A DNA stretch of 64,000 nt, from NCBI RefSeq assembly GCF_964355755.1, contig NC_092671.1:34172304-34236303 (forward strand), given 5' to 3'. Made by a program: the position numbers and the translations under genes. Under the pieces are notes generated by a model that worked only from the letters and a program-made list of their open reading frames with translations, did not search any database and was not told the DNA's origin. The DNA comes from Antedon mediterranea (taxonomy: Eukaryota > Animalia > Echinodermata). Shown piece after piece: positions 11,033 to 64,000 of the stretch; within the stretch, counting starts at the first letter, position 1, and each line of letters starts with the position of its first letter.

Positions 11033-11125
11033 AGTGAGAGTATATATATTGTGAGGGTGTTTGTTGTATGAGAGAACGTATATGGTGGGTGAAAATCGGT
11101 GAAAATATGTGATAATACCATATAT

Positions 11126-11197: not shown

Positions 11198-11819
11198 TTT
11201 TTTCAACATTTTTTTACAACTAAAAATACGGAACTTTCGCCGATGAGCTATGCTCGACACGATTATGAGACATTGGTCCAAATATGAGCACTGTTTCAAT
11301 AATTTGACAGTATTATTTATTTTATCTCTGGTGCGGGTGCGTACAATTGAGGGAATAGTGCTGAAATCTGTGAACATAAGAAAAAGTCGCTTCAACCGAG
11401 ATTCGAACCCGGCATTACAAACTTATTTTGTGCTAAAAACGTTCTAAAGGTCACACCGAAAATCACCAAAAACACTGATTGTTCACATTATATTGGTCAA
11501 AACTTCGCTGATACTTATCCGATATTTTTCTGGAAAAGTCAAATTTGTTGAAAGTTTAATCATCTTTACAGCAATATAAATATTAATAACTAAATGCTAC
11601 GTATTTTTTTCCGGAAGTTTGATTCCACTCGTGAAAACGAAACAGTAAAATCGGTTAAATTACCATGCTATAATAAATACAAATTCCTCTATAGCCAGTT
11701 TCTTCCCAAAGGTAAGAAACATCTCTGTCCAAAAACAGACGATCAATGATACAAATAGCCAAAAAAGGCTGAAACTGTAACATTTTACATGAAAAAATGA
11801 AGATAAAAAGAAAATATCA

Positions 11820-19220: not shown

Positions 19221-19231
19221 TAAGTACAATG

Positions 19232-33800: not shown

Positions 33801-36800
33801 ACTAAAATTGTTATATTAAATTTCTTTTTAAAAAAATGTGTTATTTACAATATCTTAAATTATTTGTTAGGTAATTGAAGAAGTTCGAAGGATACTAATT
33901 ATTACTAGGCAAAGAGGAATGAAATACAAAAGAAAGCTTTTTAAAAAAGTGCTTAGCAAATTTTTCCCAAAGAAGAGAATAATATAGTTTATTTTGGTAT
34001 TTTAAAGAGAAACACCAGTCCTCCATCTGGTAAGTACAGTGTATGTTTTTGTACTTTTATCTATTCATAAATAGTTTTATAATGGACCAATGGTAGTGAG
34101 GAAAATACGTGTACATATTGTGTACGTATTTTTAACAGCTTGGTTCGACTCAAGCTAGTGTCATGCACTCCTCCCTTTGACAACTAAAATTAAATAAATG
34201 ACTTATGAATATTAATTGTTGACATATTAATGCTCTCCTGGCCAGCCCACCCTTTCCCCTTCCTTTTACATTGACCACCTACAAAACTGTAGACTACATT
34301 ATTAAAAATTTGAGCTACAGTATATCAAGTTAATGTCCATGCATTATTCCACTCATTTAAATAAATTTATATAATATAATGTTTTCAATTTGTTATTTTT
34401 GGTTAGGTTCAAAGATAACCCATATGTTGTCAAATCTGTCAAACATATTTGTTGGGAAAAACTCATCAAAAAAAGTCTGCCGACCTTGAAGGTATTTAGT
34501 GTTTTTAAAAATTTAAAATACAAGTAACATTATGTACATTAAAAAAAAATATCTTAAAGTGTTTTTTTTAAATCAAATTTATCTTAGCTTAAAATTCGAG
34601 GTATATACTATGTTTACAATAATTTATTAAAATCAAACAATTAAACAAAATTTACATTTAATTGTATGATTGTTATTATAAACATTGATACGGAATAAAA
34701 ACATCAATCAGGATTGAGCACCGTTTTGCGTATTGTCTTCCTAAATAGTAATATTAAAACTAAATTTAGACCCTAATAATTTAACTAAAAATAATAGATA
34801 CAGCCAGGCCTGTCTTTGGGATCGGTATAAACAGGGCAAAGTTTGTGATTAAAAAGTTCAAATGCATATTCCACCCACCCTTATGTCTTATAATGTAAAA
34901 TTATTCTTACCACCGTTCTAATATTGCGTCATGATTTTGTGTTTACCGACCCAGATATAGGACTCTAAAACCACACCGTACCCAATTAGTTGATGATGTT
35001 ACACATTTAATAATTAAATACAGTAATAACTAAAACTATATTAATCTCTTTTCATTTTTAGGAACATGAATAAAGATCCAGAATCCTGGTCTTCACGCCG
35101 ATCAGGTAATATGCCGGTATTGCTCTTGGACACAGAAATGGCCTACATTAAAGTTTAGCAAACAATTCTAACTACAAAGAAAGCAAAATTAGATGAGGCT
35201 CTAGTTACTCTCCTCTCCACTTTTTACCTTCTGGATTTCGATTATCCAAAATGAAAAGAAGTAGGCCTCACTATCCTTTAACAGTTAGTGATTTGTGATG
35301 AAAACACACCTGTACACTTGACAAAGGCTGTTGAATCATCATTAGTATACATTAATAAATTTAAAGACACCTAATAGTTTAAAGCCCAGGTGCGGGAGAA
35401 GAATTTTACGAAATTTGTATTTTACCATTTTAATGTTTTTAAGTTTTCTTTTGATGGCATTTTATTATTAATAAAAACAAGTTTGTTTTAAAGAAGTTGT
35501 ATATATTATTGTACCTAATGTCATGTAAATTCTAAAAAATACAAACCGGAATATTCTTACTTATTTTAAGAAAAATATTGCTTGAAACAAGAATTCTACA
35601 AATAAAAATCGGAATATTCTTACTTATTTTAAGAAATATATTGCTTGAAACAAGAATTCAAAAAATACAAATCGGAATATTCTTACTTATTTTAAGAAAA
35701 ATATTGCTTGAAACAAGAATTCAAAAAATACAAATCGGAATATTCTTACTTATTTTAAGAAAAATATTGCTTGAAACAAGAATTCAAAAAATACAAATCG
35801 GAATATTCTTACTTATTTTAAGAAATATATTGCTTGAAACAAGAATATTAAAATTAAAAATCGGAATATTCTTACTTATTTTAAGAAAAATATTGCTTAA
35901 AACAAGAATTCTAAAAAATACAAATCGGAATATTCTTAGTTATTTTAAGAAAAATATTGCTTGAAACAAAAATTCTACAAATAAAAATCGGAATATTCTT
36001 ACTTATTTTAAGAAATATTTTGCTTGAAACAAGAATTCAAAAAATACAAATCGGAATATTCTTACTTATTTTAAGAAAAAAATTGCTTGAAACAAGAATT
36101 CAAAAAATACAAATCGGAATATTCTTACTTATTTTAAGAAAAATATTGCTTGAAACAAGAATTCAAAAAATACAAATCGGAATATTCTTACTTATTTTAA
36201 GAAATATATTGCTTGAAACAAGAATATTAAAATTAAAAATCGGAATATTCTTACTTATTTTAAGAAAAATATTGCTTAAAACAAGAATTCTAAAAAATAC
36301 AAATCGGAATATTCTTACTTATTTTAAGAAAAATATTGCTTGAAACAAGAATTCTACAAATAAAAATCGGAATATTCTTACTTATTTTAAGAAATATATT
36401 GCTTGAAACAAGAATTCAAAAAATACAAATCGGAATATTCTTACTTATTTTAAGAAAAATATTGCTTGAAACAAGAATTCTATTTTAAAAAATCGATAAA
36501 TTGTTACTTATTTTAAGGCAGATACTGCTTAAAACAAGACTGAAAAAAGCAATTAAATTCTTGGTAAGAATATTGTTCTTAAAGTATTATTTCTTGGTAA
36601 GAATAATTTTCTTGATAAGAATTTGTGTGATTCTTGTTAAGAATTTTACGATTCTTGGTAAGCCAAAAAGTATTGAAATACGGACAAGTCAAAATTTACT
36701 TGTTTCAAGAAATATTTTGCTTGAAACAAGTTTTTTTTTTCTTAAAACAAGAATCAGAATTTTGCTGTGCATAATCTGAGGCTGTATAGGTAATGTTTCA

Positions 36801-39800
36801 AGGTAATGTTAACCCACAGCAATAATATAAAGATGATATTTCTCATTAATTAAGGTGTTCGTGGTATTGCCGTTGATGTAATTGGAAATAAACTTTATTG
36901 GACGGATGAGGTAGAAGACCGAATCGAATTAATAAATCTGAATGGAACAGGCAGAACAGTTCTTTTTGATACATCATTAGGCGGTCCACGTGGGATTGCG
37001 ATAGATACTGTTAACGGGTATGCAGCTTATCTGAAGAAATCGGGTTTAAATCTTGCTTAGGTGGGTTTACTTATGCAAATCAATCTATCCTTGCTCTATG
37101 CAGGGCTTTATCACGGTACCTTTTTAACAAAATACATTTTTTTAAATGACGTAGATCAAAATTCAACATTGATTTGTTTAATTTTATTAATTTCCATTGG
37201 TTTTCTTATTAATAATGAAATTGAATATTTTCATTTTTTCCGGTTGTAATAGTTGTTGTATTATATATTTCTACACATGGACGTTATAAATACGAGAAAT
37301 CATTATGCTTTATTTTATAGATACCTGTACTGGACTGATTATGGTTTGCAAAAGATAGAGCGCGCGAAGCTGAATGACTTGAGTACCAGAGAAGAACTTG
37401 TGACAACGGCACTTTATCTACCAAACGGGCTTGCGTTATCAGTTAACGGTTCAGATACAACTTATATTATATTTTTTAGTTATTAGAATATGTCAGGGGT
37501 TCTCAACAGTTCTTACCGTGGGCCATATTGCAATTTACAAATGTCGCCGCGGGCCAGATATTATTGGCTGGAACAGCCATGTAACAAGGGCATTGGGTCA
37601 TGGAGTAGGCCTACAAAGATAAAAGAAACGGGAAATGGCACTTAGTTTTTCAAATTCAAATATTCTTTATTCATCCTCAATCATGAAAATATACAACAAC
37701 AATATATGAGAACATAAAAAAGATGAAAAGGAAACACATAAAAACTCAAAAGAGCTTGATTAGTTGTGTCCCCCTACGTCCCTAACTAGCCTAAAAAACT
37801 AAAACATAAATAATAAAAAAGCTAAATCCTGCAACAAGTATTATTTTTAAAATTATTTGTAAAATGATAATAAATGTTCTTTAAACAATGATTTAAATAT
37901 ATATATTGATTTGGTACTTTGTAGTTCGTAATTCAAGTCATTCCACAATTTGGGTCCCACACATGACACAGTAAAACTAGTAGAAGTACGATTACGTTTT
38001 CTGAGTCTCATTTTGTCTTTAGATCTTGTATTATAATTATGGTAAGAACCATTTTTAATAAAGAGCGATGAAAAACGCACCTCCTGATTAGTAGTAACAT
38101 TATACATGAAAAGCCCAATTTGGTACTTATTGATATCCGCAATTTTAAGAAGTTTAAATTTATAGAAACATTCAGTCATTGAATCATTAAACTTTGACCA
38201 TGTTATAGCTCGTAATGCCCTTTTCTGGAGTTTAAATAACTCATCTAGATAACTTGGAAATGTGCTACACCATATTATGTTTCAATAATTTAATACTGGT
38301 TCAATGAGTGATTTGTATATTGTCCAGAGAGCATAGGTTGGTAAAAAATGTCTTTATTCAGAACAAAATACACAAGTTCTGTCAATTGTTGCATCCACAT
38401 GAGTACTGTATTTATTTGACATAGGCTTGCTAATGCGTGACGATAATCTAACGTGACGGTTACAATGTTCCTATATAATTACTTCTTTCTAGGAATTCTC
38501 CGCCACGCCCAAGTTCACATATCACGATTAACTGAAAGTTTAACAAAACATCTATAAAGTAAAGACTCAATAGTTACTACAATAGTTTCATTAAGATGAT
38601 ATGCCTGCCTCCTAATCTTATGTGTATATAAGTATACGCTTACCAAAAGTAGGCCTAAGCAACCAAAGTAATACACTAGCATCCCACTGATGTGTCCATT
38701 AACCACCATTGTCTTGTACTAACTGACTGACCTTGGCCACAGAACACAGTGAGCTAATTTGCATAATAATGCCACCTGTGAGCACTACTAACTAGCCAAT
38801 CAGCAAAGAGTCACTCAAGTGGAACAATGAGCTAACTTGGCTTCATAGAGCCACACAATAAATAAAGTACAGTAAATTAATAGTAAAACTTCTTAATTTG
38901 GCCTTTACAGTCTTACTTTATATAGTATGCCTAAATATCGAGATATTTTCCTAGCTGTAACATTGATGTGGTTCTTATATGTGAGAAATTCATCAATATG
39001 TACTCCAAGGAATTTAGTCGATTTAACTCTATCTATTCTTTTATTGTTGACATAAATATTTACATTCTCTAAATTACTTGGATTTCGCTGATTGCGGAAA
39101 ATTATGTAATTAGTTTTTTAACGTTGATTGATAGTTTATTGCACATGAACCAATCCGAAACATTTTTTAGTTCACAATTAACTAGTTCTATGAGCGTATC
39201 CAAGTTTTCGTGAGATGCAGATATGTTTGTGTCGTCAGCAAATAAAACAAAAGATAACGAGTTTGAGCAATTAAATACATCGTTAATGTACAAAATAAAA
39301 AGTAGAGGCCCCAGAATTGAACCCTGTGGTACACCGCAATTTATATCCAAACACGAACTTGTGTTATCAATAGACGTAAATTGTTTCCTTCCACTAATAT
39401 AGTTTCTAAACCATTTAAGGGCCGTGCCTCTTATGCCATAGTGTTCCAATTTTTTAAGAAGTATATCATGGTTGATGGTGTCAAACGCTTTTGACAAATC
39501 AATAAATATTCCGATGGTATTTTTTTTCTTATCAAGCGCATCGGTTATTCGTTCAACCAGATCTATAACGGCCATAAAAGTAGAACTGTTTTTTCCGAAA
39601 CCATATTGTGCATTATTAAGGATGTTAAACTTTGTGATATAATTATTTACTCTAATTTGAACAATTTTTTCAAGAATTTTTGAAGCGGTAGGCAGAATAG
39701 AGATCGGCCTATAATTACTGACGTCACTTTTATTGCCAGATTTAAAAATTGGAACTACTCTAGCTACTTTCATACTATCAGGGACCATGCCTGTCTCAAG

Positions 39801-42800
39801 AGAGAGGTTAAAGATATGTACAAGAGGAGCTGCCACAGCAGCAATAATATGTTTTAGAATGCGATTACTTAAGTTATCAACACCTTCTGAATTTGAATTT
39901 TTGATTTCACTAACTATTTCAATGACCTCTTCTTCATTCGTAGGATTGAAAAATATGGATTGGGATTGACTCTCTTTCATATATTGTTTAAAGTCAGAAT
40001 TGTTTACATTTGGTATTTTGTTTGCTAATTCATTTCCAATGTTGGAGAAGAAGTCATTAAAAGCATCAGACATACCTTTTGGATCACATACCAAAGTTTT
40101 ATTACTATGGTTAATTACTTCATTTGGCTTAACACTCGATTTTTAGAACTTCATTTAAAACTTTCCATGTTTGCTTTGAATCGTGTCGAGCTGCATCCAG
40201 TTTTTTGGAATAATATTGTTTTTTCCAGGACCGACCAGTCCCATTTGAGCTAGACGGTTGATGTGCCGGTTCCGGTTGCTGCTAATATTGAAAGCCCTGC
40301 TTACGGGAACTCATGCCGCTATAAGGAGTAAACTTTTTAGCAGTATCTCTGCATGCTATATGAAATGCACCCACGAGCCGCATTTGGTCCGTGAGCCGCC
40401 TGTTGAGAACCCCTGGCCGCCTCTTTTTTTTCTCTTTTGTGAGGTTCACTCACCTTTATTTCATTTCAAAACGTAATCATTTTGATAAATAAACAATTTT
40501 ATTATGTTTGTGTATTATCTTTTTTAAATATATAAATATTTTCATTTATAATATTAAGTTTCCCCTTAAATCTGAAAAAAACTATACTAGAGTATAGCAT
40601 TTTCAGTGCTTTCTGCTTACTCTTCTTTTTAGTGTTTTCCCTCTTTTTTTCTTTTCTGTTTTATTTGCATTATTTACATTTTTGTACAAATTAGTTTATT
40701 TACAGTAACCTTAAAAAAAAATTAAAAATACATTCATGGAATGCTCTTGTGTAAGTATATTTTTAAACATGATCCATAAGTTTTTACACATTGACCTATT
40801 TAATTCTGACAATATTTTTATTTTGTATATAGAATATAGAACAATTGAGTTGCATTCACACTCAAAAACAAGTTCTTCAAAAGAACCGATACTATTATCT
40901 AACTTTTTATATATTTCATTGATTTTTTCCATAAATAGACATTGATTTTACATTTGAAAAACATGTGTTTTTCAACCTCAGTTACATCACATAACATTTT
41001 TTTGGGTTTTTAATATTCCGTTTATAAAATTACCTCCGCCAAGGAGGTTATATTTTCACCCCTGTGTGTTTGCTGGGTGTGTGTGTGTCTGTGAACAGCC
41101 TGGAGGCCACAGTTTTTAGGCGATTCTAACCAAATTTGGTCACAATGATCTAAGCCCAAAAATCTCGGAGGGGTTTGAATTTGAGGGGAAAATGTCATAG
41201 GTCAAGGTCACAACTAACAAAAAACTATTTTACTGCCTAGAGACCACAGTTTTAATCCGATTCTCACCAAACTTAGCCACAATAATCAATGACTCATCAT
41301 ATAATTGTGGTTAAATTTTGAAAGGTCAGGGTCAAAGATCAAGGTTCAAAAAAAAAAAAATAAAAAAAAAAAAAAAAAAAAAAAAAACATCAGCGGGACT
41401 TGAACCAGCGATCTCAACTGTGAAAGGCTGGATACTTAACAATTACACCAAACGCTCATCCACAACTTTGTAGTGTGCAGTTAGCCTATAATATATATTT
41501 TCCGGGAGAATTTTATGTAAGGGAATTTTACAATAGGCGGAGGTTTGTACTCTCGGAGTACCCTCGAGTTGTAAATGTGTTGGTAAAATTTTGACAAGCA
41601 ATTTGTAGTTAAGTTGTGCATATTTTTTGTATTTCTCATTTTTTACTTTCTTGACCAAATATCAAACATGTTTGTAATTTCAATACCAATTTCTTTTTCC
41701 CATTTGGGAATGGTAATAGGAGCAACAAACATACCTTCTATAAAATCCACATGGCACTAATTTTGTTCTTATTTAAGCTTAAACCAGATACTTCACAGAA
41801 ATTATTAACAATGAATAGACCTCTTTTTATACTTTTTTCGTTTCCTGCAAACAATACTGTATCATCTGCAAGTTGTGCTATACGCACTTCCCGGGTGGGG
41901 GGTGGGGGGTCACTCTTAAATATTTCCATACGGGGAGGTGCCGCATTTACGGGTATATTTTCGAGGGCCTGGTAGCACAAGTGTGGGAAAATATGGAGAG
42001 TTGGTAGCACAAGTGTGTGAAATTACAGGGTGAAATTAGTAGTTTAAGTCTCTGGCCCACCCACCCATGTCAAAATTTCACGATTTATCGCTAAATTTTG
42101 CAGGTATTTTAGCATACTGGATGCTATAAGCCCGGCTATATAAGCCCATCGCTAAATACCTTTGAATAGGCCTTGAGTTTTCACGAAACCTAAGACCACG
42201 AAAGGTAAGACCCCATAAGACCTAAGATCACGAAAGCTAAGACCCAAGACCTAAGATTACAAATTCTAAGATATACTACAGCTTAAAAACAATACTTGTT
42301 TATCCATACATAATTTTAAACACAGTAGGTTTCATTTATTACCATAAATATAATTAAATACTACCGCAAAACATAGATAAACTCACATTATTTTCGCCCG
42401 TTGAGTAAATGTATATTTTTTCTTTACAACAAACAAACTTGACGGGTTGTTTGTTGGTATATATTTACTCCATTGTGTTGGTTCAGAGGATGTTTTTCTT
42501 ACGCACCTGCCTTACTTGTATTTTGACTCCAAATTTGTTTACTAACTTTATCCTGAATACCACACTTTAAAGTTAGGATTTCTAAATACTTTCAGACGGA
42601 GAAACACATAAAAACAAATAAATAAATCCTTTAAATTGATGATTTTACAGACATGTTTCTTTGTATACTGTAACTCCTCGAGCTTCCCCCATGCTCAATG
42701 TTTTTGTTTCTATGGAGCGCCAAAAGAGCAACAATAATAGTACAAGTATAAAAACAGTAAGAAAACAAAACAAATCATGATTTTTAAATTAAAATTTATT

Positions 42801-45800
42801 TGCCAGTATTTATTTCTCCGTACTTGCATGATTATACTATTATCATTACAATTTTAATTTTACATTGTTCCATCCACACTGTAGATGGACTCCACAGAGT
42901 TTTCAGCCCTCTATATAATTTTGGCTCCTTTGACGTTCCATAGAAACAAAAACATTGAACATGGTAGGCCTACAACTGCTACTGTACTGTAGGCTAGCGA
43001 AATTTGCAAACAGTTTGTGTGCGAGAAAAACGTCTGTACGGTAAAATCATCGATTTAAAAATGTATATGTTACTTATTATGTGATTCTTTTTCATAAAAG
43101 TGCCAATTCTAAGGTGTGGTATTCAGAATAAATGTTGGGAGTTAAAATACAAGGCAGGTGCGAAAGATAAATATTTGTAATCTTAGGTCTTGGGTCTTAG
43201 CTTTCGTGATCTTAGGTCTTAGGGGGTCTTAGCTTTTGTGGTCTTAGGTTTTGTGACACCCTAGAGTTTTCGCATCAGCAGAAGAACACGAAACATAGCC
43301 TAGGACAAAATCATTCAACTGTGACCACTCTTGATCATCGTCGTCATGCAACACGGACGAGCGATAAACTTGTCATCAAAACACGTTCGTGATTTTGCCA
43401 TGAACGGTCTCTTTGGCCATGGGCAGATCATGCCGGGAACCAGTACAGATATTGCGCCCTCTCTGGCGTGGCCTTGTTTCTGCCTGCCGTCATTTTAGAG
43501 AAAACTGGATTTTGGTAAATGGTAGTTTAAGTCCGTAGTATTTTTCAGTAAAAAAGGTAGTACAAGTGCCTCATGTCTTGAAGTGGCTGCTGCACCCCCC
43601 CCCCCCCCCCGTTTGGTTTATATACAAGTGACCCCCCCCCCCCGGGACGCGATTTTTTTTTCGTACATAAGTTGGGGACCCCCTCATGAAACGTCACAAA
43701 ATATACATGAATAATTCATCAGTTAAATTTTCTTGTTCCGTGTGCACCCAAGCGTATAGCAACAAGAAGTGATTACACGGTACGATTCTAGGCCTATCTC
43801 CGCTGTCGAAGAATAGCGTCGTTTTGTTTGGATTGTCGAAATAATCGGCCTTTAGTTTATGGTGTTTTTAATATAATTTATTACTAAAGAATTACGTGTT
43901 AACATTATAGTTTCTATTAATACTATTAGGCCTAATTATTAGTCTCTAAACCCATGTCTATTCTAGTAGTAGCTGTGTGGATGTGTGTGACGTGTGTGTG
44001 TGTTAGGTATGGCCAAAGATAGTTATACTATCTTTGGTAATAGTTACACTATCTTTGGTATGACACAATCCGAGTAATAAGTCAGCAAAATTAAACAATA
44101 AACATTACACAAAAATACATTTTTTATTCTCGTGGGTCAAATCTTCCCATCTCATGTGTTCATACACGCGCATTTTTAAAGTTCCTTTGAGTACATTGCA
44201 TATTGTTTGATAATTGATAGCAGAATTAAAAAAATACAGTACACAAATACACATTCTTATTCTTGTGGGTCTAAGCTTTCTTTGTCCAAGAACGCTTGGG
44301 TGCACACGGAACAACAACTGCGATACGATTCTTTCTACAATAATAGGCCTAGATTCTAGGTCAATTCACGTGATTGCCTTCGCGCACTCTTCTTCACACA
44401 CACGTCCACTATGCAAAATGTGTCGAGGCTAATCGACAGCTAGGCAAAACATTAAACTAAGTAGTAATTGGACATAGCCCAAAGAAAGCTTAGACCCACA
44501 ATAATAAAGAATGTGTATAATTTGTGTACTGTAATTTTTTAATTCTGCTTTTATTATCAAACAATATGCATTACTCAAAGGAACTTTAAAAATTCGCGTA
44601 TATATGAACACATGAGATGGGAAGATTAGACCCACGAGAATAAAAAATGTATTTTTGTGTAATGTTTATTGTTTAATTTTGATACCTAACACACAAGTCA
44701 CACACACCCACACAGCTACTACTAGAATATACAGGGGTTTAGAGACTAGTAATTAGGCCTAATAGTATCAATAGAAACTATAATTTTAACACGTAATTCT
44801 TTAGTAATAAACTATATTAAAAACACCATAAACTAAAGGCTGATTATTTCGACAATCCACACAAAACTCCGCTATTATATTATGAAATCGCACGCGGCAA
44901 CCACAGCGGAGATAGGCCTAGAATCGTACCGCACTTGTGTAATCACTTCTTGTTGCTATACGCTTGGGTGCACACGGAACAAGAAAATTTAACTGATGAA
45001 TTATTCATGTTTATTTTGTGACGTTTCATGATGGGGTCCCCAACTTATGTACGAAAAAAAAAATCGCCCCCGGGACGCACTTCCTCTTTTATAGGACTAG
45101 GTAGCAACATTCCTTTATAATGTTGATCATTTTTTAGGTTACTTAATTGCTTGCCATTGTTTCTACAACCAATAGAAATAGTAATGCTGACAAGGGACAT
45201 CCCTGTCATATACCACATTTCATTTCAAAATTATCAGATACCCATCCATTGTTAACATTCTGTTTTGCTATACTGTACATTGTTTTTTACCCATTTACAA
45301 AAGGACTGTCCAAAATTAAATTTTTCCAACAAATTAAACTTGAACCCTCTACTTACAGAATCAAATGCTTTTCTAAAATCAAGTGACAAAAAAGCACCTT
45401 CAACATCTTCTTCAACAGTATAGTATAGGAGATCATGATGTTTTCTCCAGCAAAACGACCTTTGATATAGCCATTTTGGTCACTTTTTACAACAGGATTT
45501 AATTACGTTATGTAATCTATTACTAAGGAGGTGTGTTAATATTTTATAAACTGTGGTGAGCAGAGTAATAGGACTCCAATTTTGTAGTAGATTTTTATCC
45601 CCTTTCAAATTAATAACATCAAGTCATTGCGTATTGTACACTTCGCTATTTAAATAGCATTCATTAAAATCAATACATTACATATTAAATATTTGAGCTC
45701 TTCCCAAAAATTTAATATTTGTAAACCATCATACCCTGGGGCTTTATTCAATTTCATATGCTTTAATGCTTCACTGCTTCTTGTACTGTGGTTAAGCCTT

Positions 45801-51498: not shown

Positions 51499-51628
51499 TT
51501 ATGCACGGCTTAATCCATCTGCATTTCCATTTAATGATCCTTTCTTGTAAATAACTTTAAATTTATATCCTTGTAAAAACAGAGCCCATCTCATAAGTCT
51601 AACATTGGCACCCTTCATTGAGTCCATC
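51499..51628 (-). pseudogene. C-terminal part of gypsy RNase H, separated from the rest by the Polinton-like insertion
   Basis: (M)DSMKGANVRLMRWALFLQGYKFKVIYKKGSLNGNADGLSRA*; in frame with 63665-64000 after removing the insert and one TSD. Confidence 0.93.
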
Positions 51629-51685
51629 AGTAGAAAGAAAGGTACTTCAGACCCGACCTTGGTGTATTTCCTGATTACGTAATAT

Positions 51686-51940
51686 CCGCCAGGTGTTTCT
51701 AATGAAGGTCGTTCATTTCCTGTTATTGTATTAGTTATGTAACTTCCGCCAGGTGTTTCTAATGAAGGTCGTTCTTTTCCTGTTATTGTATTAGTTATGT
51801 AACTTCCGTCAGGTGTTTCTAATGAAGGTCGTTCTTTTCCTGGTTTCGTACTAGTTATGTAATTTCCGCCAGGTGTTTCTAATGAAGGTTATTCTTTTCC
51901 TGTTATTGTAATAGTTATGTAATTTCCGCCAGGTGTTTCT
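51686..51940. repeat. Subterminal 60-bp tandem repeat, ~4.25 copies (left)
   Basis: ccg(c/t)caggtgtttct at 51686, 51746, 51806, 51866, 51926. Confidence 0.95.
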
Positions 51941-51959
51941 TTGTCTCATATTTATTAAT

Positions 51960-51997
51960 TTTTGGCGCGAGGTTCTGGTACGTGGTGAGTGACGTCA
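51960..51997 (+). promoter_or_regulatory. Candidate promoter: E2F-like TTTGGCGCG and perfect CRE/ATF TGACGTCA upstream of the first ORF
   Basis: Motifs at 51961-51969 and 51990-51997, ~110-150 bp before ATG 52110; mirrored at ~63296-63332. Confidence 0.45.
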
Positions 51998-52109
51998 TTA
52001 CTTTATTTACGATTTAAGATGGTGTAACAAAGTGAATCGGTTATTGTTGTACTATTTTCCAGTTGTTTTGCCTATTTTTGCGTAGAGTATCTCTTTACAG
52101 TATTTCATT

Positions 52110-52664
52110 ATGTCTGGAAGTATATATTTTTCGCAAGAGAGTTGTGTAGATACTGTTATAATAATTAGCGATGATGAGGATACTGTTGTTGTTCCAGGCA
52201 GTGATATAGATGATCGTTACACGGCGGCCGAAGAGGTTATCCCCGTCGGTATAGATGAAGGAGTCAAGAGGAGTAACAGGCCTACAAGTTGTATATTTAC
52301 GTACGTGGACGAGGTGGAGAGAGAATTTTTGTTGAAAATGGAGCGTTTGGTTAAACAATTGTTTGCTGCTCAAGTGTTAGCCAAGTGTTGGGTTTTAAGT
52401 AAAGCGGCTTGTTATGGTTGTGAATTTGACAGGAGCAGTCAAAAAGATCATGATTTCTGTTGTATGAAGTCTCTAGAAGAACAGATTGACTATTTTTATC
52501 GGGAGGTTCTGGATAAGAAGTATGTTTCAGTCGATACCGTTTACAACAAACTAAATATGCACGGAGAATATTCATTGCCTCGGTATAGACATTTCGTTTA
52601 TTTTCTTGTCAATACCCTGATTAATTCAGAGACTATTTTTAAGCTGTTGTGCGAGGACATTTAA
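52110..52664 (+). CDS. 184-aa intronless protein: acidic N-terminus + CxxC-x9-H-x2-CC putative zinc-binding motif (left copy)
   Basis: Open ATG-TAA frame conserved in both arms; motif CYGCEFDRSSQKDHDFCC. Confidence 0.75.
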   Translation: MSGSIYFSQESCVDTVIIISDDEDTVVVPGSDIDDRYTAAEEVIPVGIDEGVKRSNRPTSCIFTYVDEVEREFLLKMERLVKQLFAAQVLAKCWVLSKAACYGCEFDRSSQKDHDFCCMKSLEEQIDYFYREVLDKKYVSVDTVYNKLNMHGEYSLPRYRHFVYFLVNTLINSETIFKLLCEDI

Positions 52665-52819
52665 ATTGTGTTTCGCACGTGTCACGGAAACGATTGACCG
52701 GAAATAACAATCATTATCTTTTTAATTACTGTACTGGGCTACTTCCATACTGAGCTGCATATCCTGTTTCAAGCGTAATCGTTCGTTTCACTCTCTGTAA
52801 ATCTCTACAGTCTATAAAC

Positions 52820-54638
52820 ATGAGTTTCAGCTGTTTACCTACTCCGAAATTAGCAATTGGTGAGAAACCCCGTAGGACAATGAAAAGAGTGATGGGGAGT
52901 TCTAATGGTCAAGCTGACGAGTGTAGCAGTTTAAAATTACCAACGATGGCTTCTAAATCAGCGAATATATTGGATTCTATAAAATCTTTTAACGGTCAAA
53001 CAGATGAGTGTAAAGGTTTGAGTAAAGCCTCAGGAATGAGCGCCCGAGATTTTGCCGTAATGACCGATGGTGTACCAAAGATTTCCATAACTTCAACGAA
53101 TCGGATTTTCTTGTCTGAAAAACGCCATGTAGTGGCCCAACGATGGGGTGACGATGTTTATGTTTATCTCAGAGAGTATTATCAAACGGAAGAATATGGT
53201 GTCTACAAACCTGGACCTCTAGGTATTAATTTACCCGTTCTGCTGTGGCAAAAACTTTTCAACAATATTGATTTAATTAGTCAGGCACTGGAAGACTTAC
53301 AAAGAGACATTAACATGGTGGAGGCAGTAAGAATCCCACTTTCGGACATAATTCATGTGGTAGTTAGTAACTGGAAAGAAGAACAATTTGTGTGTATTCG
53401 CCGCTATTACCAGTCTGAAGAAGGAGGCAAGTTTAAACCCGGTAAAAAAGGTGTAAACCTTCCAAAGAGTCAGTGGTTCAAGATAATTGAAAAACACGGT
53501 GAAATACAAAAGATGATTGAGGAGGTTGGTAATGATAATGCGGCTACTGTTGACAAAAACGTTAATGGAGGACGTTTATTCAATTCAGAACATCAATTGC
53601 TACCCCCTGATAAGTTATCGGTGCAAAAGATAATAGGGGAAAATTTAGACTGTGATTACCTTCAACTTCTTGATAAAGGAGCAGCCGATACATTGTTTAA
53701 AAAATGTGAGGAAGAGATTGACTATTTTACCGGAGATCTTGCAAAGGTGAAAGTGTACGGAAAGTGGTTTAATATTCCTAGAAAACAGGTTAGTTCCATT
53801 ATGTTTTTATCCATGGTTTTGTATTAATGACTTGTTAATTACTTGTATATCGTTTCCTTTGTTTTTTCCATAATTTACCGCTGTGTAGCTATAGGTGTTA
53901 TTTACTCTTTTTCTGTAAATTATTTTATTTGGGGCGTGTTCATTTACATCTCGCCAAATAATAAATGACTTTCTTTGTATGGTTTCCCCTCTGCAGGTTT
54001 CGTTCGGCGATTCAGGCTTAACTTACAAATATTCAGGCAATACAGTACCAGCTTTACCGTGGCCACCATTCCTGAAAGATCTCCGCGATCTTTTAAAATC
54101 GGTTACAGGACATTACTTCAATTTTGTTTTGGTCAACCGGTAAATATTCTTGTTTATTATTTTATTTATTTATTTTATTTATTGATTAAAAGGGTCCATC
54201 GTTTACCTCTAAAACGAATGAACACTATCAGTATTCATACTGGATGATTTCTGCAATTTGCTAGATAATAATTGGGGTTTTTTTTTTAGTCTCATCTTAA
54301 AATATTTTATTTTCTATTGTATTTTGTCGTTACTCTATAGATATGCTACTGGAAGTGATTACATTGGCGAACACAAAGATGATGAGAAAGACATGAATCA
54401 CTTTAGTCCAATCGCCTCTGTATCATTGGGGCAACCACGTATGTTTAGATTTCGACATGGTGATGCGCGAGGTAAGAGTCCCAAAAGAATCATTGAGCCA
54501 GTAACTGTTGATCTTAAACACGGTACATTATTAATGATGAATTATCCCACTAATGAGTACTGGTACCATTCACTGCCTAAAAATCAATCCATCAAGCTAC
54601 CAAGAATAAATCTCACGTTTAGAGATATTAAAAGATGA
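52820..54638 (+). CDS. PC4-PC4-ALKBH2-like fusion protein, 469 aa; exons 52820-53788, 53997-54139, 54341-54638 (intact)
   Basis: GT-AG introns of 208 and 201 bp give one open frame. Two PC4 domains (YLREYY..YKPGPLGINLP..W; CIRRYY..FKPGKKGVNLPKSQW). AlkB domain KVYGKWFNIPRKQVSFGDSGLTYKYSG...FNFVLVNRY..GSDYIGEHKDDE...WYHSLP...RINLTFR with HxD, H and R/N/R ligands. Confidence 0.92.
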
Positions 54639-56997
54639 GAGAAATGTTACGCAAACATTACAGTCTTTAATAGTGATTGCAGATCTCAAGAATATCAACT
54701 GTTCATGATCTGTTCTCATTTAGTATAGTAGTACCAGTTGAATTATTTTTGTGATGATATTCCTAAAAATGGTTGTATTATTGTATTGATGTTAATTCAC
54801 TTAGATCTAGGCCTAATTCCATTGATCGTTAATAATCATGTGATTGTTTGTCATTGTGTGGATAATGATTAACTTTACGAATAATTTCTTAAAAGTAACT
54901 TGTAATGTATTTCTAATTGTTAAATACAATTTTTTATGTTTTTAATAGGTGTGTAAGTTTTTCTTTAAAGCGTTTTAATCGTAATTTCAAGAGTAATAGG
55001 TACTTGTAACGTTTGAAACGGACTGGTAGATTAAACAAAAAAAAACCAAAAAAACAACAAAAACAAAACACGTTATAATAACACTAATAATAGCACATAT
55101 TTTCGTACATGTATCAATGATTTATCTACATAAGTGTGATTAATATTATTACAATAAAGACCATGTACATCTACGATATTTTTACTGTAAGTGGTATTGT
55201 AAATAAAAATTATGAATTCAATCGTGAGAAATGACCGATATCTGTGTATTATTTTATATTACTTTTATCATAATTGCAACAACACCAAAAAAAAAACTCA
55301 GAGAAATCATAATTATCGAATACAGAAAGACGTTTTGGTTACCAATTGTATTTCTTGACACTTAATACATTTTAACAAAAAACAAGACCTTCAACCGGAG
55401 CCAAAAATGGAAATTTGTTTACGTGCAGGTTATTGCCATTAGATATTCTTTGAACTACTCTGGTTTTTATAAATATTGTCACTTTTTTTCTACACGTTTA
55501 TCTACCGAGATTTTGTTTTCCTTTTTATGAATCTTCCGCTGTTCATGAGCATTATTAATTTTTTACAGGCCTTGTTCTTCGCTTTGCAGGCTAAATCTTA
55601 AAACGGCATAGGCCTACATTTTAACGGTTCTTTGTTACCTATAGTTCTCTGAATGTTTTAATTTACCGTAGATGATGAAAAAATCCCTTAATCTAGCACC
55701 ATTTTAAAAAAAAGGTTCCGCAGTAAATGGTTTATTTTTGGTGGTATTAATGGAATCATCGAGGCACAATATTAGGCTTAAAAACATGACGTCACTATTT
55801 TAAACGGTTTATCATACAAGAACAATTAACCAATCACAAAACTGAGCTACTGATTTGCGTAGAAGTTTCTGGAAATGACAAATTAAGGAAACACGTACAC
55901 ATTAATAAATATATATTAATTTTTATATAAATAATAGACAAAACAAAAGGAAATACACCAAACAAATCATTTTCGTTATGAATTTATAATAACTTTAAAT
56001 TTTGTCCATCACAGGAGACGCGTTTAGCGTTTTCCAATTGTAAAACAGTTTCGCATTGCGTCGCAACGCATGCACATACTGCAAGTACCGTACCGTACTG
56101 TAACAAGTGTACTGATATGTATTTTGTTGGTCACTCATCATTTTAGCCAACACATTATTTAACTCATCAGGTGTAATATCTTTTCACAAATCCTTTATAT
56201 CTTTACTTTTTCTTGACAACTCATAACAAACAAGAATAGTACTCTGAATGAGTGTGGGAGAGGTGTGTGGGAGTCCCATTCAACTAAACCTTGCCAATTT
56301 GTACTCGACCTACGATAAAACCATTTTTTAAAAGTCAACATAGCGACACGAGAAAACAATTGATAATAGGGATATAAAGTTTTTCTTGCATTGTTATACA
56401 GTAACCTATGTTTTTCGGTGTTTACACCATCTCATTGTTTATAATTACGTTTGTTAATATCGGTAGTGTTTCTCTAGCAGAGTTATATTACTTGTTTATA
56501 CTCGTATAGTTTGCAGTCCTCCATGTTGTTCGTATATTTTGTAAAAAGTGTACTTATGATTACTTTAAAAAACCAACTCATTTTATTTGCATTTTATCTA
56601 CACCTCATGGTTAAAATGTGTTGTTTTTCATAGAGTGTGATGCTGCTTAAAACGTTATACTAGTATAACCACCAAAACGGTTTATTATCTGTAGGAAATC
56701 ATCAATGGTAACATGCGGTAAACAATACAAATTAGTTTCACAAATTATTTAAAAAAATAGCACAATTGTTACAAATGAATTTAAGAAAATAAAGGTGTAC
56801 AGATTTTATTTCGAAAAATTGTAGGCCTAGACCTACAAAGATAATTTTACAGGTCATGGTTAATTGTCACAGTCTATTCGTCCTTGTATAGATGTCAAGT
56901 TCAAGTGTCAATTGACACAAGTATTTTTCCCATGTTCAGAGTTCAAGTAATTGACCTTTTAATGTTTAACCCTGGTTTGAAAATAAAATGTCCTCTT

Positions 56998-57293
56998 TTG
57001 TAGATTTGTAACCCTTATTGAGTTTGAGCACATTTGTTAAGTACCGGTACTTAATTAAGTTGGGTGGCTCATTAATTGACCTTTTAATGTTGCATGGAAC
57101 TCTCCCTGTAACCCTAATAAGTAATAAACATTTAGTGACAGTCTCTTGTAGATTTGTAACCCTTATTGAGTTTGAGCACATTTGTTAAGTACCGGTACTT
57201 AATTAAGTTGGGTGGCTCATTAATTGACCTTTTAATGCTGCATGGAACTCTCCCTGTAACCCTAATAAGTAATAAACATTTAGTTACAGTCTC
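56998..57293. repeat. 148-bp direct tandem duplication in the central spacer
   Basis: ttgtagatttgtaacccttattgag at 56998 and 57146. Confidence 0.9.
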
Positions 57294-60200
57294 TCTTTAT
57301 CTATATTTGTGAAGTCAGTATACAGAGAAATAATATATTACCTTAACCACTAAAGATATGTTATTAATGTAACAAAGTTATTTTGTGTTATTGAATACGT
57401 ATACAGGTCTAATAATAAATGAATTTTAACACAATAAATGACTATAAACTTATAAAATGGTGAAATTTAATTTTCTTCCGGTCTTGACCATTTTCCCCCG
57501 GTCTTGACCATTTTTACTCCAAGTCTTGAACAATTCCCCTTGACAATAACTACAGTTTTTAAACAACTTTTATTATTAGAAACCCCTGTTCCTAAATGGT
57601 TTCCAGTCTACTTGTATTTAAACATTGTATCAGAGAGTTGAAAAATAAGTTCCCTGAACATGTTATGCGATGTGGTCATCATAAGTGTGTAGACCGCATG
57701 GCTACCGTACATCACTAACAGGGATGTCGTCCCAAGCCGTGGAAACAGAAAAGAAGAACAGACGACCGTGTCCACTTTTCAATGTCCAGATCATTTTCGA
57801 TCGATTTTGATGTATGGAAGAGCTTATTTAGTGGGGTAGGTTCAGCTTATTTATAGGTATTGATTTTTTTTGGGAGTTAGTAGACAGTTTGTTTGTTTTG
57901 GGGTTTTTTTTTTTTTTTCATTATCGACCCGTTCTGATAACTGTAGAAACACGTCCGAAAGCACATCGTTCGAATTGTCTTTGGAGAAAGTACCATACAC
58001 TCAGCAAACAATGTCTACTTGAATGATTGTAGGAATACAGTAGACTTCAAGTTTTCAGTTAATCAGTTATTGTATTGCTATATTGGTGTATCGTACATTC
58101 GTTTCTGTATCGTTATAATATACTGTTTATTAATGAACTTTTATGTTTCGCATCCTGCAATACAGCTCTTTTAGACCGTTGACTAGTATAAGCTGCAATC
58201 ATAGGCTATAGGCCTAATCTCAGAATATTAACTTCAATTTTACGAACAGTTTGAATTACAAACGGCAAAAGGCACAATTAAAAGGGACCGTGTGTTTGCC
58301 ACAAATAGGCCCTATACTTAAAATACTAAAGTTGATATACCTGATAACCAAAGTACACTGTACACTTTTATAAGAATTAGTTTAATGTATGTGTGACCTT
58401 TTTTTTGTTAATTTATTCTGTACACTTTATGTAAAATTATCTTTGTAGGTCTAGCCCTACAATTTTTCGAAATAAAATCTGTACACCTTTATTTTCTTAA
58501 ATTCATTTGTAACAATTGTGCTATTTTTTTAAATAATTTGTGAAACTAATTTGTATTGTTTACCGCATGTTACCATTGATGATTTCCTACAGATAATAAA
58601 CCGTTTTGGTGGTTATACTAGTATAACGTTTTAAGCAGCATCACACTCTATGAAAAACAACACATTTTAACCATGAGGTGTAAATAAAATGCAAATAAAA
58701 TGAGTTGGTTTTTTAAAGTAATCATAAGTACACTTTTTACAAAATATACGAACAACATGGAGGACTGCAAGCTATACGAGTATAAACAAGTAATATAACT
58801 CTGCTAGAGAAACACTACCGATATTAACAAACGTAATTATAAACAATGAGATGGTGTAAACACCGAAAAACATAGGTTACTGTATAACAATGCAAGAAAA
58901 ACTTTATATCCCTATTATCAATTGTTTTCTCGTGTCGCTATGTTGACTTTTAAAAAATGGTTGTATCGTAGGTCGAGTACAAATTGGCAAGGTTTAGTTG
59001 AATGGGACTCCCACACACCTCTCCCACACTCATTCAGAGTACTATTCTTGTTTGTTATGAGTTGTCAAGAAAAAGTAAAGATATAAAGGATTTGTGAAAA
59101 GATATTACACCTGATGAGTTAAATAATGTGTTGGCTAAAATGATGAGTGACCAACAAAATACATATCAGTACACTTGTTACAGTACGGTACGGTACTTGC
59201 AGTATGTGCATGTGTTGCGACGCAATGCGAAACTGTTTTACAATTGGAAAACGCTAAACGCGTCTCCTGTGATGGACAAAATTTAAAGTTATTATAAATT
59301 CATAACGAAAATGATTTGTTTGGTGTATTTCCTTTTGTTTTGTCTATTATTTATATAAAAATTAATATATATTCATTAATGTGTACGTGTTTCCTTAATT
59401 TGTCATTTCCAGAAACTTCTACGCAAATCAGTAGCTCAGTTTTGTGATTGGTTAATTGTTCTTGTATGATAAACCGTTTAAAATAGTGACGTCATGTTTT
59501 TAAGCCTAATATTGTGCCTCGATGATTCCATTAATACCACCAAAAATAAACCATTTACTGCGGAACCTTTTTTTTTAAAATGGTGCTAGATTAAGGGATT
59601 TTTTCATCATCTACGGTAAATTAAAACATTCAGAGAACTATAGGTAACAAAGAACCGTTAAAATGTAGGCCTATGCCGTTATAAGATTTAGCCTGCAAAG
59701 CGAAGAACAAGGCCTGTAAAAAATTAATAATGCTCATGATCAGCGGAAGATTCATAAAAAGGAAAACAAAATCTCGGTAGATAAACGTGTAGAAAAAAAG
59801 TGACAATATTTATAAAAACCAGAGTAGTTCAAAGAATATCTAATGGCAATAACCTGCACGTAAACAAATTTCCATTTTTGGCTCCGGTTGAAGGTCTTGT
59901 TTTCTGTTAAAAAGTATTAAGTGTCAAGAAATACAATTGGTAACCAAAACGTCTTTCTGTATTCGATAATTATGATTTCTCTGAGTTTTTTTTTGGTGTT
60001 GTTGCAATTATGATAAAAGTAATATAAAATAATACACAGATATCGGTCATTTCTCACGATTGAATTCATAATTTTTATTTACAATACCACTTACAGTAAA
60101 AATATCGTAGATGTACATGGTCTTTATTGTAATAATATTAATCACACTTATGTAGATAAATCATTGATACACGTACGAAAATATGTGCTATTATTAGTGT

Positions 60201-60641
60201 TATTATAACGTGTTTTGTTTTTGTTGTTTTTTTTGTTTTTTTTGTTTAATCTACCAGTCCGTTTCAAACGTTACAAGTACCTATTACTCTTGAAATTACG
60301 ATTAAAACGCTTTAAAGAAAAACTTACACACCTATTAAAAACATAAAAAATTGTATTTAACAATTAGAAATACATTACAAGTTACTTTTAAGAAATTATT
60401 CGTAAAGTTAATCATTATCCACACAATGACAAACAATCACATGATTATTAACGATCAATGGAATTAGGCCTAGATCTAAGTGAATTAACATCAATACAAT
60501 AATACAACCATTTTTAGGAATATCATCACAAAAATAATTCAACTTGTACTACTATACTAAATGAGAACAGATCATGAACAGTTGATATTCTTGAGATCTG
60601 CAATCACTATTAAAGACTGTAATGTTTGCGTAACATTTCTC

Positions 60642-62473
60642 TCATCTTTTAATATCTCTAAACGTGAGATTTATTCTTGGTAGCTTGATGGATTGATTTT
60701 TAGGCAGTGAATGGTACCAGTACTCATTAGTGGGATAATTCATCATTAATAATGTACCGTGTTTAAGATCAACAGTTACTGGCTCAATGATTCTTTTGGG
60801 ACTCTTACCTCGCGCATCACCATGTCGAAATCTAAACATACGTGTCTGCCCCAATGATACAGAGGCGATTGGACTAAAGTGATTCATGTCTTTCTCATCA
60901 TCTTTGTGTTCGCCAATGTAATCACTTCCAGTAGCATATCTATAGAGTAACGACAAAATACAATAGAAAATAAAATATTTTAAGATGAGACTAAAAAAAA
61001 CCCCAATTATCCATTAAAACAAACTTATCTAGCAAATTGCAGAAATCATCCAGTATGAATACTGATAGTGTTCATTCGTTTTAGAGGTAAACGATGGACC
61101 CGTTTAATCAATAAATAAAATAAATAAATAAAATAATAAACAAGAATATTTACCGGTTGACCAAAACAAAATTGAAGTAATGTCCTGTAACCGATTTTAA
61201 AAGATCGCGGAGATCTTTCAGGAATGGTGGCCACGGTAAAGCTGGTACTGTATTGCCTGAATATTTGTAAGTTAAGCCTGAATCGCCGAACGAAACCTGC
61301 AGAGGGGAAACCATACAAAGAAAGTCATTTATTATTTGGCGAGATGTAAATGAACACGCCCCAAATAAAATAATTTACAGAAAAAGAGTAAATAACACCT
61401 ATAGCTACACAGCGGTAAATTATGGAAAAAACAAAGGAAACGATGTACAAGTAATTAACAAGTCATTAATACAAAACCACGGATAAAAACATAATGGAAC
61501 TAACCTGTTTTCTAGGAATATTAAACCACTTTCCGTACACTTTCACCTTTGCAAGATCTCCGGTAAAATAGTCAATCTCTTCCTCACATTTTTTAAACAA
61601 TGTATCGGCTGCTCCTTTATCAAGAAGTTGAAGGTAATCACAGTCTAAATTTTCCCCTATTATCTTTTGCACCGATAACTTATCAGGGGGTAGCAATTGA
61701 TGTTCTGAATTGAATAAACGTCCTCCATTAACGTTTTTGTCAACAGTAGCCGCATTATCATTACCAACCTCCTCAATCATCTTTTGTATTTCACCGTGTT
61801 TTTCAATTATCTTGAACCACTGACTCTTTGGAAGGTTTACACCTTTTTTACCGGGTTTAAACTTGCCTCCTTCTTCAGACTGGTAATAGCGGCGAATACA
61901 CACAAATTGTTCTTCTTTTTAGTTACTAACTACCACATGAATTATGTCCGAAAGTGGGATTCTTACTGCCTCCACCATGTTAATGTCTCTTTGTAAGTCT
62001 TCCAGTGCCTGAATAATTAAATCAATATTGTTGAAAAGTTTTTGCCACAGCAGAACGGGTAAATTAATACCTAGATGTCCAGGTTTGTAGACACCATATT
62101 CTTCCGTTTGATAATAATCTCTGAGATAAACATAAACATCGTCACCCCATCGTTGGGCCACTACATGGCGTTTTTCAGACAAGAAAATCCGATTCGTTGA
62201 AGTTATGGAAATCTTTGGTACACCATCATTCATTACGGCAAAATCTCGGGCGCTCATTCCTGAGGCTTTACTCAAACCTTTACACTCATCTGTTTGACCG
62301 TTAAAAGATTTTATAGAATCCAATATATTCGCTGATGTAGAAGCCATCGTTGGTAATTTTAAACTGCTACACTCGTCAGCTTGACCATTAGAACTCCACA
62401 TCACTCTTTTCATTGTCCTACGGGGTTTCTCACCAATTGCTAATTTCGGAGTAGGTAAACAGCTGAAACTCAT
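60642..62473 (-). pseudogene. PC4-PC4-ALKBH2-like fusion, right copy; exons 62473-61505, 61296-61154, 60939-60642; nonsense W185*
   Basis: TGG changed to TAA at 61919-61921, in frame, inside the second PC4 domain; splice sites intact. Confidence 0.9.
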
Positions 62474-62628
62474 GTTTATAGACTGTAGAGATTTACAGAG
62501 AGTGAAACGAACGATTACGCTTGAAACAGGATATGCAGCTCAGTAGGGAAGTAGCCCAGTACAGTAATTAAAAAGATAATGATTGTTATTTCCGGTCAAT
62601 CGTTTCCGTGACACGTGCGAAACACAAT

Positions 62629-63183
62629 TTAAATGTCCTCGCACAACAGCTTAAAAATAGTCTCTGAATTAATCAGGGTATTGACAAGAAAATAAACGAA
62701 ATGTCTATACCGAGGCAATGAATATTCTCCGTGCATATTTAGTTTGTTGTAAACGGTATCGACTGAAACATACTTCTTATCCAGAACCTCCCGATAAAAA
62801 TAGTCAATCTGTTCTTCTAGAGACTTCATACAACAGAAATCATGATCTTTTTGACTGCTCCTGTCAAATTCACAACCATAACAAGCCACTTTACTTAAAA
62901 CCCAACACTTGGCTAACACTTGAGCAGCAAACAATTGTTTAACCAAACGCTCCATTTTCAACAAAAATTCTCTCTCCACCTCGTCCACGTACGTAAATAT
63001 ACAACTTGTAGGCCTGTTACTCCTCTCGACTCCTTCATCTATACCGACGGGGATAACCTCTTCGGCCGCCGTGTTACGATCATCTATATCACTGCCAAGA
63101 ACAACAACAGTATCCTCATCATCGCTAATTATTATAACAGTATCTACACAACTCCCTTGCGAAAAATATATACTTCCAGACAT
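62629..63183 (-). CDS. 184-aa Cys/His-motif protein (right copy)
   Basis: Differs from 52110-52664 at 5 residues; frame open. Confidence 0.72.
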   Translation of the reverse strand: MSGSIYFSQGSCVDTVIIISDDEDTVVVLGSDIDDRNTAAEEVIPVGIDEGVERSNRPTSCIFTYVDEVEREFLLKMERLVKQLFAAQVLAKCWVLSKVACYGCEFDRSSQKDHDFCCMKSLEEQIDYFYREVLDKKYVSVDTVYNKLNMHGEYSLPRYRHFVYFLVNTLINSETIFKLLCEDI

Positions 63184-63352
63184 AATGAAATACTGTAAAG
63201 AGATACTCTACGCAAAAATAGGCAAAACAACTGGAAAATAGTACAACAATAACCGATTCACTTTCTTACACCATCTTAAATCGTAAATAAAGTAATGACG
63301 TCACTCACCACGTACCAGAACCTCGCGCCAAAAATTAATAAATATGAGACAA

Positions 63353-63607
63353 AGAAACACCTGGCGGAAATTACATAACTATTACAATAACAGGAAAAGA
63401 ATAACCTTCATTAGAAACACCTGGCGGAAATTACATAACTAGTACGAAACCAGGAAAAGAACGACCTTCATTAGAAACACCTGGCGGAAGTTACATAACT
63501 AATACAATAACAGGAAAAGAACGACCTTCATTAGAAACACCTGGCGGAAGTTACATAACTAATACAATAACAGGAAATGAACGACCTTCATTAGAAACAC
63601 CTGGCGG
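63353..63607. repeat. Subterminal 60-bp tandem repeat (right)
   Basis: agaaacacctggcgg every 60 bp. Confidence 0.95.
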
Positions 63608-63664
63608 ATATTACGTAATCAGGAAATACACCAAGGTCGGGTCTGAAGTACCTTTCTTTCTACT

Positions 63665-64000
63665 TCCATCCATCTCAATGCCTGGTGGTCAGTATGAACT
63701 TGAAATTCACAACCATACAGATAATACTTAAGTTTATTGATAGCCCAAACAATAGAGAGGCACTCTTTTTCTGGCACAGAATATCTCTGCTCATGTAGAG
63801 ATAACTTTCTACTTATGTACACAATTGGATAATCATTACCCTCACGATCTATTTGGCTCAGCACTGCACCTATGCCATAATTTGAGGCATCGGTTTGCAA
63901 TATAAACATCTTAACAAAATTTGGGGCTTTTAATACATTATCATCAGTAAGTCGTTTCTTTAAAGTTACAAAGGCATTTTCACATTGTTCATTCCACTTA
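63665..64000 (-). mobile_element. Ty3/gypsy pol: RT connection and RNase H N-terminal part, continuing beyond the window
   Basis: KWNEQCENAFVTLKKRL...FILQTDASNYGIGAVLSQ...RYSVPEKECLSIVWAI...FQVHTDHQALRWM; open to the window edge. Confidence 0.93.

Follow-up and report, generated by a model that had tools for sequence, protein, structure and literature searches.

A 12-kb palindromic insertion with Maverick-type ends carries a doubled PC4-ALKBH2 fusion gene in the crinoid Antedon mediterranea

Here, we describe a palindromic element in the crinoid Antedon mediterranea, found in a window of 64,000 nucleotides (assembly GCF_964355755.1, contig NC_092671.1, positions 34,172,304 to 34,236,303 of the forward strand; coordinates below count from the first letter of this window). 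The palindromic 12-kb insertion is real, and what is new in it is its cargo, a repair fusion of two PC4 domains with an ALKBH2-type domain (2xPC4-ALKBH2). We consider the element to be probably a non-autonomous palindromic satellite of Maverick/Polinton elements, copied and integrated by a helper and carrying a crinoid ALKBH2 fused to two PC4 domains, a reading that we hold with reasonable rather than strong confidence. The element is laid out as follows.

51629-63664: whole palindromic element, 12,036 bp
51629..56851, plus strand: left arm, 5,223 bp, starting AGTAGA
58430..63664, minus strand: right arm, 5,235 bp, ending TCTACT
56852..58429, unstranded: unpaired middle, 1,578 bp, with a 148-bp tandem duplication at 56994-57294
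51623..51628, unstranded: left copy of the target-site duplication, TCCATC
63665..63670, unstranded: right copy of the target-site duplication, TCCATC
51675..51940, plus strand: left subterminal 60-bp tandem repeats, about 4.3 units
63353..63618, minus strand: right subterminal 60-bp repeats
54639..56851, plus strand: inner left arm, non-coding

An initial reading of the window from its letters (hereafter the sequence-only reading) had described a 12-kb palindrome with 5.2-kb arms making up 87% of its length, AGT...ACT termini, an exact 6-bp target-site duplication and subterminal 60-bp repeats, and each of these features was recovered. The arms align with 98.9% identity over 5,239 columns, differ by 36 substitutions (17 transitions and 19 transversions) and five indel sites, and occupy 86.9% of the 12,036 bp, leaving 1,578 bp unpaired between them. 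The ends read AGTAGA...TCTACT, with an exact TCCATC on each flank (a given 6-mer would match by chance at local composition with a probability of about 5e-4), and each arm holds 4.3-4.4 copies of the 60-bp repeat. As had also been proposed, core viral genes are missing: protein-primed polymerase B, retroviral-like integrase, packaging ATPase, protease and capsid gave no frame or Pfam match within the element, where heavily decayed remnants are possible. The inner non-coding arm and the middle contain no further stop-free frame of at least 100 amino acids, none of the six stop-free frames of 60-78 amino acids within 54639-58429 has a Pfam match above the curated cut-off, and no Rfam family matches in the element.

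The insertion interrupts the reverse transcriptase RNase H-like domain of a retrotransposon, which we take to be Gypsy-like.

63665..64000, minus strand: host site, upstream part, RNase H-like domain interrupted by the element
51499..51628, minus strand: host site, downstream part, in the same reading frame

On the minus strand, the right flank encodes an RNase H-like domain (PF17917, E 1e-33), and with the flanks translated separately, the frame resumes in the left flank. Parts of the stretch occur in ten public runs, none of them listed as RNA, with X5 a possible RNA run; four runs, from three studies and two organisms, were aligned to the element, with read depth in 30, 29, 30 and 30 of 30 bins, although depth was rejected as a measure of copy number. 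In run X1, two contigs track the left flank to 51628 and then continue as the right flank, indicating that the uninterrupted site exists in nature.

We assign the ends to the Maverick type because the exact terminal pair and the 6-bp duplication match those of published Mavericks. In the available part of PMC8097293, vertebrate Mavericks end in (AGT)2 or (AG)3 with 6-bp duplications, and intact ones have inverted repeats of 46-1,447 bp and a size of 12.7-24.6 kb; the exact AGTAGA//TCTACT pair, with perfect 6-bp duplications, belongs there to pit-viper Mavericks carrying core genes. A range of 100-1,500 bp for Maverick inverted repeats is given in the accessible text of PMC10748475. The end of the present element differs from the common (AGT)2 motif by a single base. 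Together with the interrupted RNase H frame and the empty site in X1, the published end pair supports the earlier proposal of Maverick-type ends and precise integration.

Like Mavericks, the element has AG...CT ends and a 6-bp duplication, lies near the lower limit of intact size and carries genes that face the centre. Unlike them, it has no polymerase, integrase, ATPase, protease or capsid gene, its arms span 5.2 kb rather than 46-1,447 bp, and its genes, contained in the repeats, are present twice. The ends and duplication of a Maverick are thus present, while every core gene and the repeat length of about 0.05-1.5 kb are absent, which argues for a dependent type of element and not an autonomous Maverick. 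A dispersed multicopy family, as expected of a non-autonomous derivative, is found as well (16 cargo models on seven chromosome-sized sequences). The Ginger1 and Ginger2 transposons are likewise inverted-repeat DNA elements moved by a Maverick-related integrase, with TG ends, 4-bp duplications and repeats below 300 bp in the portion of Bao et al. at hand (PMC2836005); identity with Ginger was considered and rejected, as AGTAGA ends, a 6-bp duplication and 5.2-kb arms do not fit it.

Both arms carry the same cassette, ORF1 (open reading frame 1) followed by gene 2, identical in layout and facing inward.

52110..52664, plus strand: ORF1, left copy, 184 amino acids, intronless, of a CxGC...SQxxHxxC motif family
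62629..63183, minus strand: ORF1, right copy, open, five residues unlike the left copy
52820..53788, plus strand: gene 2 exon 1, N-terminal region, two PC4 domains and start of the ALKBH2 domain
53997..54139, plus strand: gene 2 exon 2, with GT-AG introns on either side
54341..54638, plus strand: gene 2 exon 3, AlkB catalytic half with H382, D384, H447, R459 and R465 of the 469-residue product
60642..62473, minus strand: gene 2, right-arm copy, second PC4 repeat cut short by a premature stop

The sequence-only reading had given each arm this inward two-gene cassette; the layout stands, while the right copy of gene 2 is broken by its premature stop. The left copy encodes an open product of 469 amino acids that contains the A. 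mediterranea database model P0001 letter for letter, and model P0005 corresponds to the portion of the right-arm gene past the stop. PC4 (PF02229) is found in two stretches of gene 2 (E 1.5e-23) that match PC4/Sub1 structures and share 38% identity with each other. The ALKBH2-type domain is complete (PF13532 above cut-off), and the solved structures closest to it are of human ALKBH2 (E 1e-71). Its metal- and cofactor-binding residues are present in the left arm, in keeping with the AlkB hallmark, HxD...H and RxxxxxR of the 2OG-Fe(II) domain. Single-strand DNA binding by PC4 is established. For the PC4 pair, binding to opened or single-stranded DNA is predicted, and for the ALKBH2 domain the removal of 1-methyladenine and 3-methylcytosine, which are AlkB substrates according to the part of PMC2553587 available. 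The element gene resembles the ALKBH2 DNA demethylases in possessing the full catalytic domain.

To place the AlkB domain, we compared it with 120 listed matches. Leaving the family aside, the closest of these are two ALKBH2-like genes from A. mediterranea itself (80% and 77%), followed by another crinoid (74%) and then by sea urchins (about 61-65%). In a tree of 37 rows, chosen among these matches and the models of the family, the element copies fall within the crinoid clade with support of 100/100, and a tree grouping the echinoderm host genes without the element was rejected on a 20-row subset (p-AU 2.7e-9). As the domain nests among crinoid host genes and bears introns, the comparison indicates host cargo, captured from the crinoid lineage with introns included, and not a viral gene. 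A viral origin of the domain was rejected on its relatives, the crinoid clade and the p-AU test; neither the AlkB nor the PC4 half has relatives among viral contigs. The PC4-ALKBH2 fusion appears to be the element's own, because the crinoid host-like ALKBH2 paralogues lack the PC4 half. Two such paralogues of the same species are P0042 and P0044. The crinoid ALKBH2 sequences also share an unusually long stem branch (0.7).

Captured cargo of this kind has partial parallels. Nematode Mavericks bear intron-containing, host-derived cargo beside one end, as set out in the accessible part of Widen et al. (bioRxiv 10.1101/2022.07.12.499685), and here too a gene of that kind lies next to a Maverick-type end. 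Those elements keep their core genes and have cargo at one end, whereas here the cargo dominates, is doubled, and consists of a repair enzyme with PC4. Plant RNA viruses likewise use captured AlkB repair domains within a selfish replicon (van den Born et al., PMC2553587, in the part available); the viral AlkBs prefer RNA and reside in RNA viruses, whereas the present domain is fused behind two PC4 domains in a multicopy, intron-containing gene of a DNA element. PC4 and AlkB are not named as Maverick accessory genes in the available text and supplement of PMC8502044, do not occur in the searched portion of the PMC8097293 supplement, and are not named in the accessible main-text parts of bioRxiv 10.1101/2024.03.25.586562, whose supplements may bear on ORF1. 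No palindromic Maverick derivative is described in the accessible parts of PMC6431247 or PMC3014272. The literature searched, with most subscription papers and Repbase outside it, held no description of palindromic non-autonomous Mavericks or of a PC4-ALKBH2 fusion; the earlier suggestion of an undescribed class holds within that literature, and we claim it no more widely.

ORF1 is assigned to no Pfam family, and a word-indexed search retained none of 53 candidates. HMMER over representatives returned 24 distant relatives (E up to 0.001), in which the CxGC...Q..H..C motif is invariant; of ten that were looked up, a single one has a name, a hypothetical protein from a different crinoid, and a PC4 domain stands at the N-terminus of one of the 24. 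No family is common to the 25 aligned ORF1-type proteins. The predicted structure is mainly helical (model pTM 0.60); at E 0.001, neither viral nor PDB libraries contain a matching fold, and Atlas gave no usable match, a fused relative yielding only PC4 leads below 0.8 there. Context searches produced no confirmed locus. This cysteine-motif family, like PC4 domains, may occur in the accessory regions of Mavericks. In the ORF1 relatives P0021 and P0041, a PC4-like domain is fused ahead of the cysteine-motif domain, which suggests that both parts travel together elsewhere.

Gene 2 belongs to a dispersed family. The database holds 16 gene 2 models (18 accessions) in four clusters on seven sequences of 22-41 Mb, two of the models being the arms of the studied copy. 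Its repair-type (ALKBH2) identity and multiple copies agree with the sequence-only reading, which had the element moving a DNA-repair cassette. Relative to the left arm, the AlkB domain is 92.5-99.5% identical in the 11 other models with a complete domain; across all models covering each region, the PC4 part is 83-100% and the N-terminus 45-100% identical. At the protein level, the uniformity of the AlkB domain among copies suggests that the enzyme is under constraint. Two same-chromosome pairs are identical over their common length: P0007, contained in P0010, over 393 amino acids with four residues private to the pair, and P0012, contained in P0006, over 304 amino acids, with the pairs differing from one another by 1-3%. 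Two additional sequences carry two gene 2 accessions each. Identical pairs on one chromosome would be expected if the siblings were two-armed too, and they favour that view. A second subfamily of the fusion gene (P0002, P0003, P0009 and P0016) has a PC4 part of about 84% and an AlkB domain of up to 97% identity.

How the arms came to be alike can be read in part from their repeats. Compared with their positional partners in the opposite arm, the 60-bp units show 0, 0, 1 and 0 differences; compared with their neighbours within the same arm, they show 4-9. The better match across arms indicates that one arm was copied whole from the other. At 18 of 31 arm sites (the 31 coming from the best 40 of 431 rows), every X1 contig differs from the left arm; the right arm shares the letter of the left arm at 13 of these, and at five the left arm alone has it. 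The 13 shared sites suggest that the arms were made alike after the lineage of this copy had split from that of X1. Since insertion, the arms appear to have drifted neutrally, with protein-altering changes at 5/5 changed codons in ORF1 and 8/9 in gene 2.

The sequence-only reading had taken the middle for a spacer, and 1.6 kb are indeed unpaired. However, in all four aligned runs, the contig that reaches 56851 follows the course of the right arm from there and enters the right-hand part of the middle (region 56650-56990), and no contig crosses the 56851/56852 join among the 28 records listed of 35. In X5, the sequence preceding 56852 is absent from the window. Because the arm runs into the right side of the middle and the left join was unseen, the middle is probably unpaired inner arm, extending the right arm inward and lacking its left counterpart in this copy, and would then not be a true centre. 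The left inner join at 56851/56852 is probably peculiar to the studied copy. X6 contigs omit one copy of the 148-bp duplication, and X6 and X7 join about 56880 to about 57945, indicating that the length of the middle varies within the family.

The same join invites another account, in which the family is an ordinary or one-sided Maverick with a cassette at one end and the studied copy is a one-off copy-back product, made by a template switch at 56851/56852 and integrated once. The uncrossed join, the continuation in all four runs and the foreign sequence in X5 count in its favour. X1 adds a summed depth that does not halve from arm to middle (147 versus 141, a weak measure). The nematode Mavericks with cargo at one end offer a model for the parent (bioRxiv 10.1101/2022.07.12.499685, available part), and a precedent for the product is a hairpin-forming deletion derivative of the kalilo plasmid, known here from the title of a reference in PMC11071308. 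A longer palindrome that suffered a deletion in the studied copy fits the read data equally, and the identical same-chromosome cargo pairs are expected of two-armed siblings. We regard a single copy-back event as unlikely.

For the preferred reading, a Maverick/Polinton satellite, we envisage the following course. The protein-primed polymerase and the integrase of a helper would recognise the element ends in trans, and with its ends retained the element would require nothing beyond such a helper. A displaced single strand would fold into a panhandle, re-synthesis from which would keep the arms alike within a copy while copies diverge, and the integrase would leave the 6-bp duplication. Long arms could arise if synthesis copied one end over the other, the copy-back route proposed in the sequence-only reading. 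The family would probably be palindromic with arms longer than 5.2 kb, the studied copy having lost its inner left arm and true centre. The PC4-ALKBH2 product would shield the single-stranded intermediate from methyl lesions; after insertion, the arms would drift neutrally, one copy of gene 2 acquiring its stop. Several of these steps parallel the Polinton model in the available part of PMC4196379, with an extrachromosomal single strand, a racket shape, copying by the polymerase and then integration.

A more specific proposal, which we offer tentatively and rate as possible rather than probable, is that crinoid palindromic satellites built their own DNA-maintenance enzyme from a host ALKBH2 and an element-borne PC4, that this enzyme was selected for repairing the panhandle intermediate, and that each round of replication regenerates one arm from the other. 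As an alternative role, the cargo could repair damage from host methyltransferases that silence the element; 3-methylcytosine caused by methyltransferases has reportedly been linked to ALKBH2. Gene 2 may also be a mere passenger.

Several observations weigh against a helper-dependent palindromic satellite. The link from element to helper is one that we infer, and the terminal patterns had no matches in viral and metagenome contigs; context and fold searches linked neither ORF1 nor the PC4 pair to any Maverick. The 6-bp duplication is demonstrated for a single copy only. Among the contigs listed for the four runs, none has the two differing continuations that would prove a palindrome, and the 13 sites shared by both arms are equally explained by one copying event. 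With 13 of 14 changed codons altering the protein, the cargo bears no trace of selection after the element inserted, and the conservation of the AlkB domain between copies could stem from recombination. The identical pairs, whose accession numbers are separated by 215 and 384, may represent independent insertions instead of arms, and P0008 and P0013, models with neighbouring numbers on the chromosome of the window, are not mutual nearest matches.

Quite unlikely, in our judgement, is a cut-and-paste transposon of the foldback type, mobilised by a transposase from outside the Mavericks, with arms kept alike by gene conversion and Maverick-like ends by coincidence. Subterminal tandem repeats are typical of foldback elements. 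The tie to Mavericks consists of the first six bases and the length of the duplication, no Maverick gene or context having been found, and a further large inverted duplication in the window lacks ends of this kind, so that palindromes must also form here in other ways. Against this stand the documentation of the exact end pair with a 6-bp duplication in Mavericks (PMC8097293, available part), the TG ends and 4-bp duplications of Ginger (PMC2836005, available part), and the 36 unrepaired arm substitutions, which speak against strong ongoing conversion. An assembly artefact joining two copies or haplotypes head to head, already thought unlikely in the sequence-only reading, is very improbable: the left inner join is absent from the contigs listed for four runs, no record spans the whole element, and the two database arm models probably share the assembly of the window and hence are not independent, but the outer flanks are collinear in a single RNase H frame and bear an exact 6-bp duplication, the uninterrupted site is present in X1, and the arms differ by 36 substitutions and five indel sites.

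The remainder of the window is rich in repeats. An older and larger inverted duplication (865-12763 versus 48584-19232, blocks 90-98% identical) holds EGF and LDL-receptor class B exons of an LRP-like gene; its right arm is split by many insertions, and a 21-bp tandem repeat contains its outer ends, which show no matching termini. At 23983-28492, a LINE-like element on the minus strand (coiled-coil open reading frame, endonuclease and reverse transcriptase) is flanked by inverted repeats of about 530 bp (23274-23802 and 28706-29264), and the whole of 23274-29264 probably arose when a LINE jumped into a small foldback element. Another LINE-like reverse transcriptase, this one truncated, lies at 37853-40142, also on the minus strand. 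A 196-bp tandem array of about eight copies occupies 16387-19223, with a flanking 1.2-kb unit that recurs in both orientations near 43641-45076. Two AT-rich arrays, at 30453-31933 (92-102-bp units) and 35528-36539 (63-bp units), have a 52-bp core in common and sit in one insertion within the older duplication.

Single-stranded panhandle replication of Mavericks has so far been a model without direct proof. If the arms of this family are alike within copies and different between them, the family would be a genomic record of such replication, testable across loci. In this crinoid, a repair gene of the host, introns included, appears to have been taken up by a mobile element, joined there to PC4 domains and carried to at least seven chromosomes, and mobile cargo of this kind would explain the apparent expansion of ALKBH2 in the annotation of the genome.

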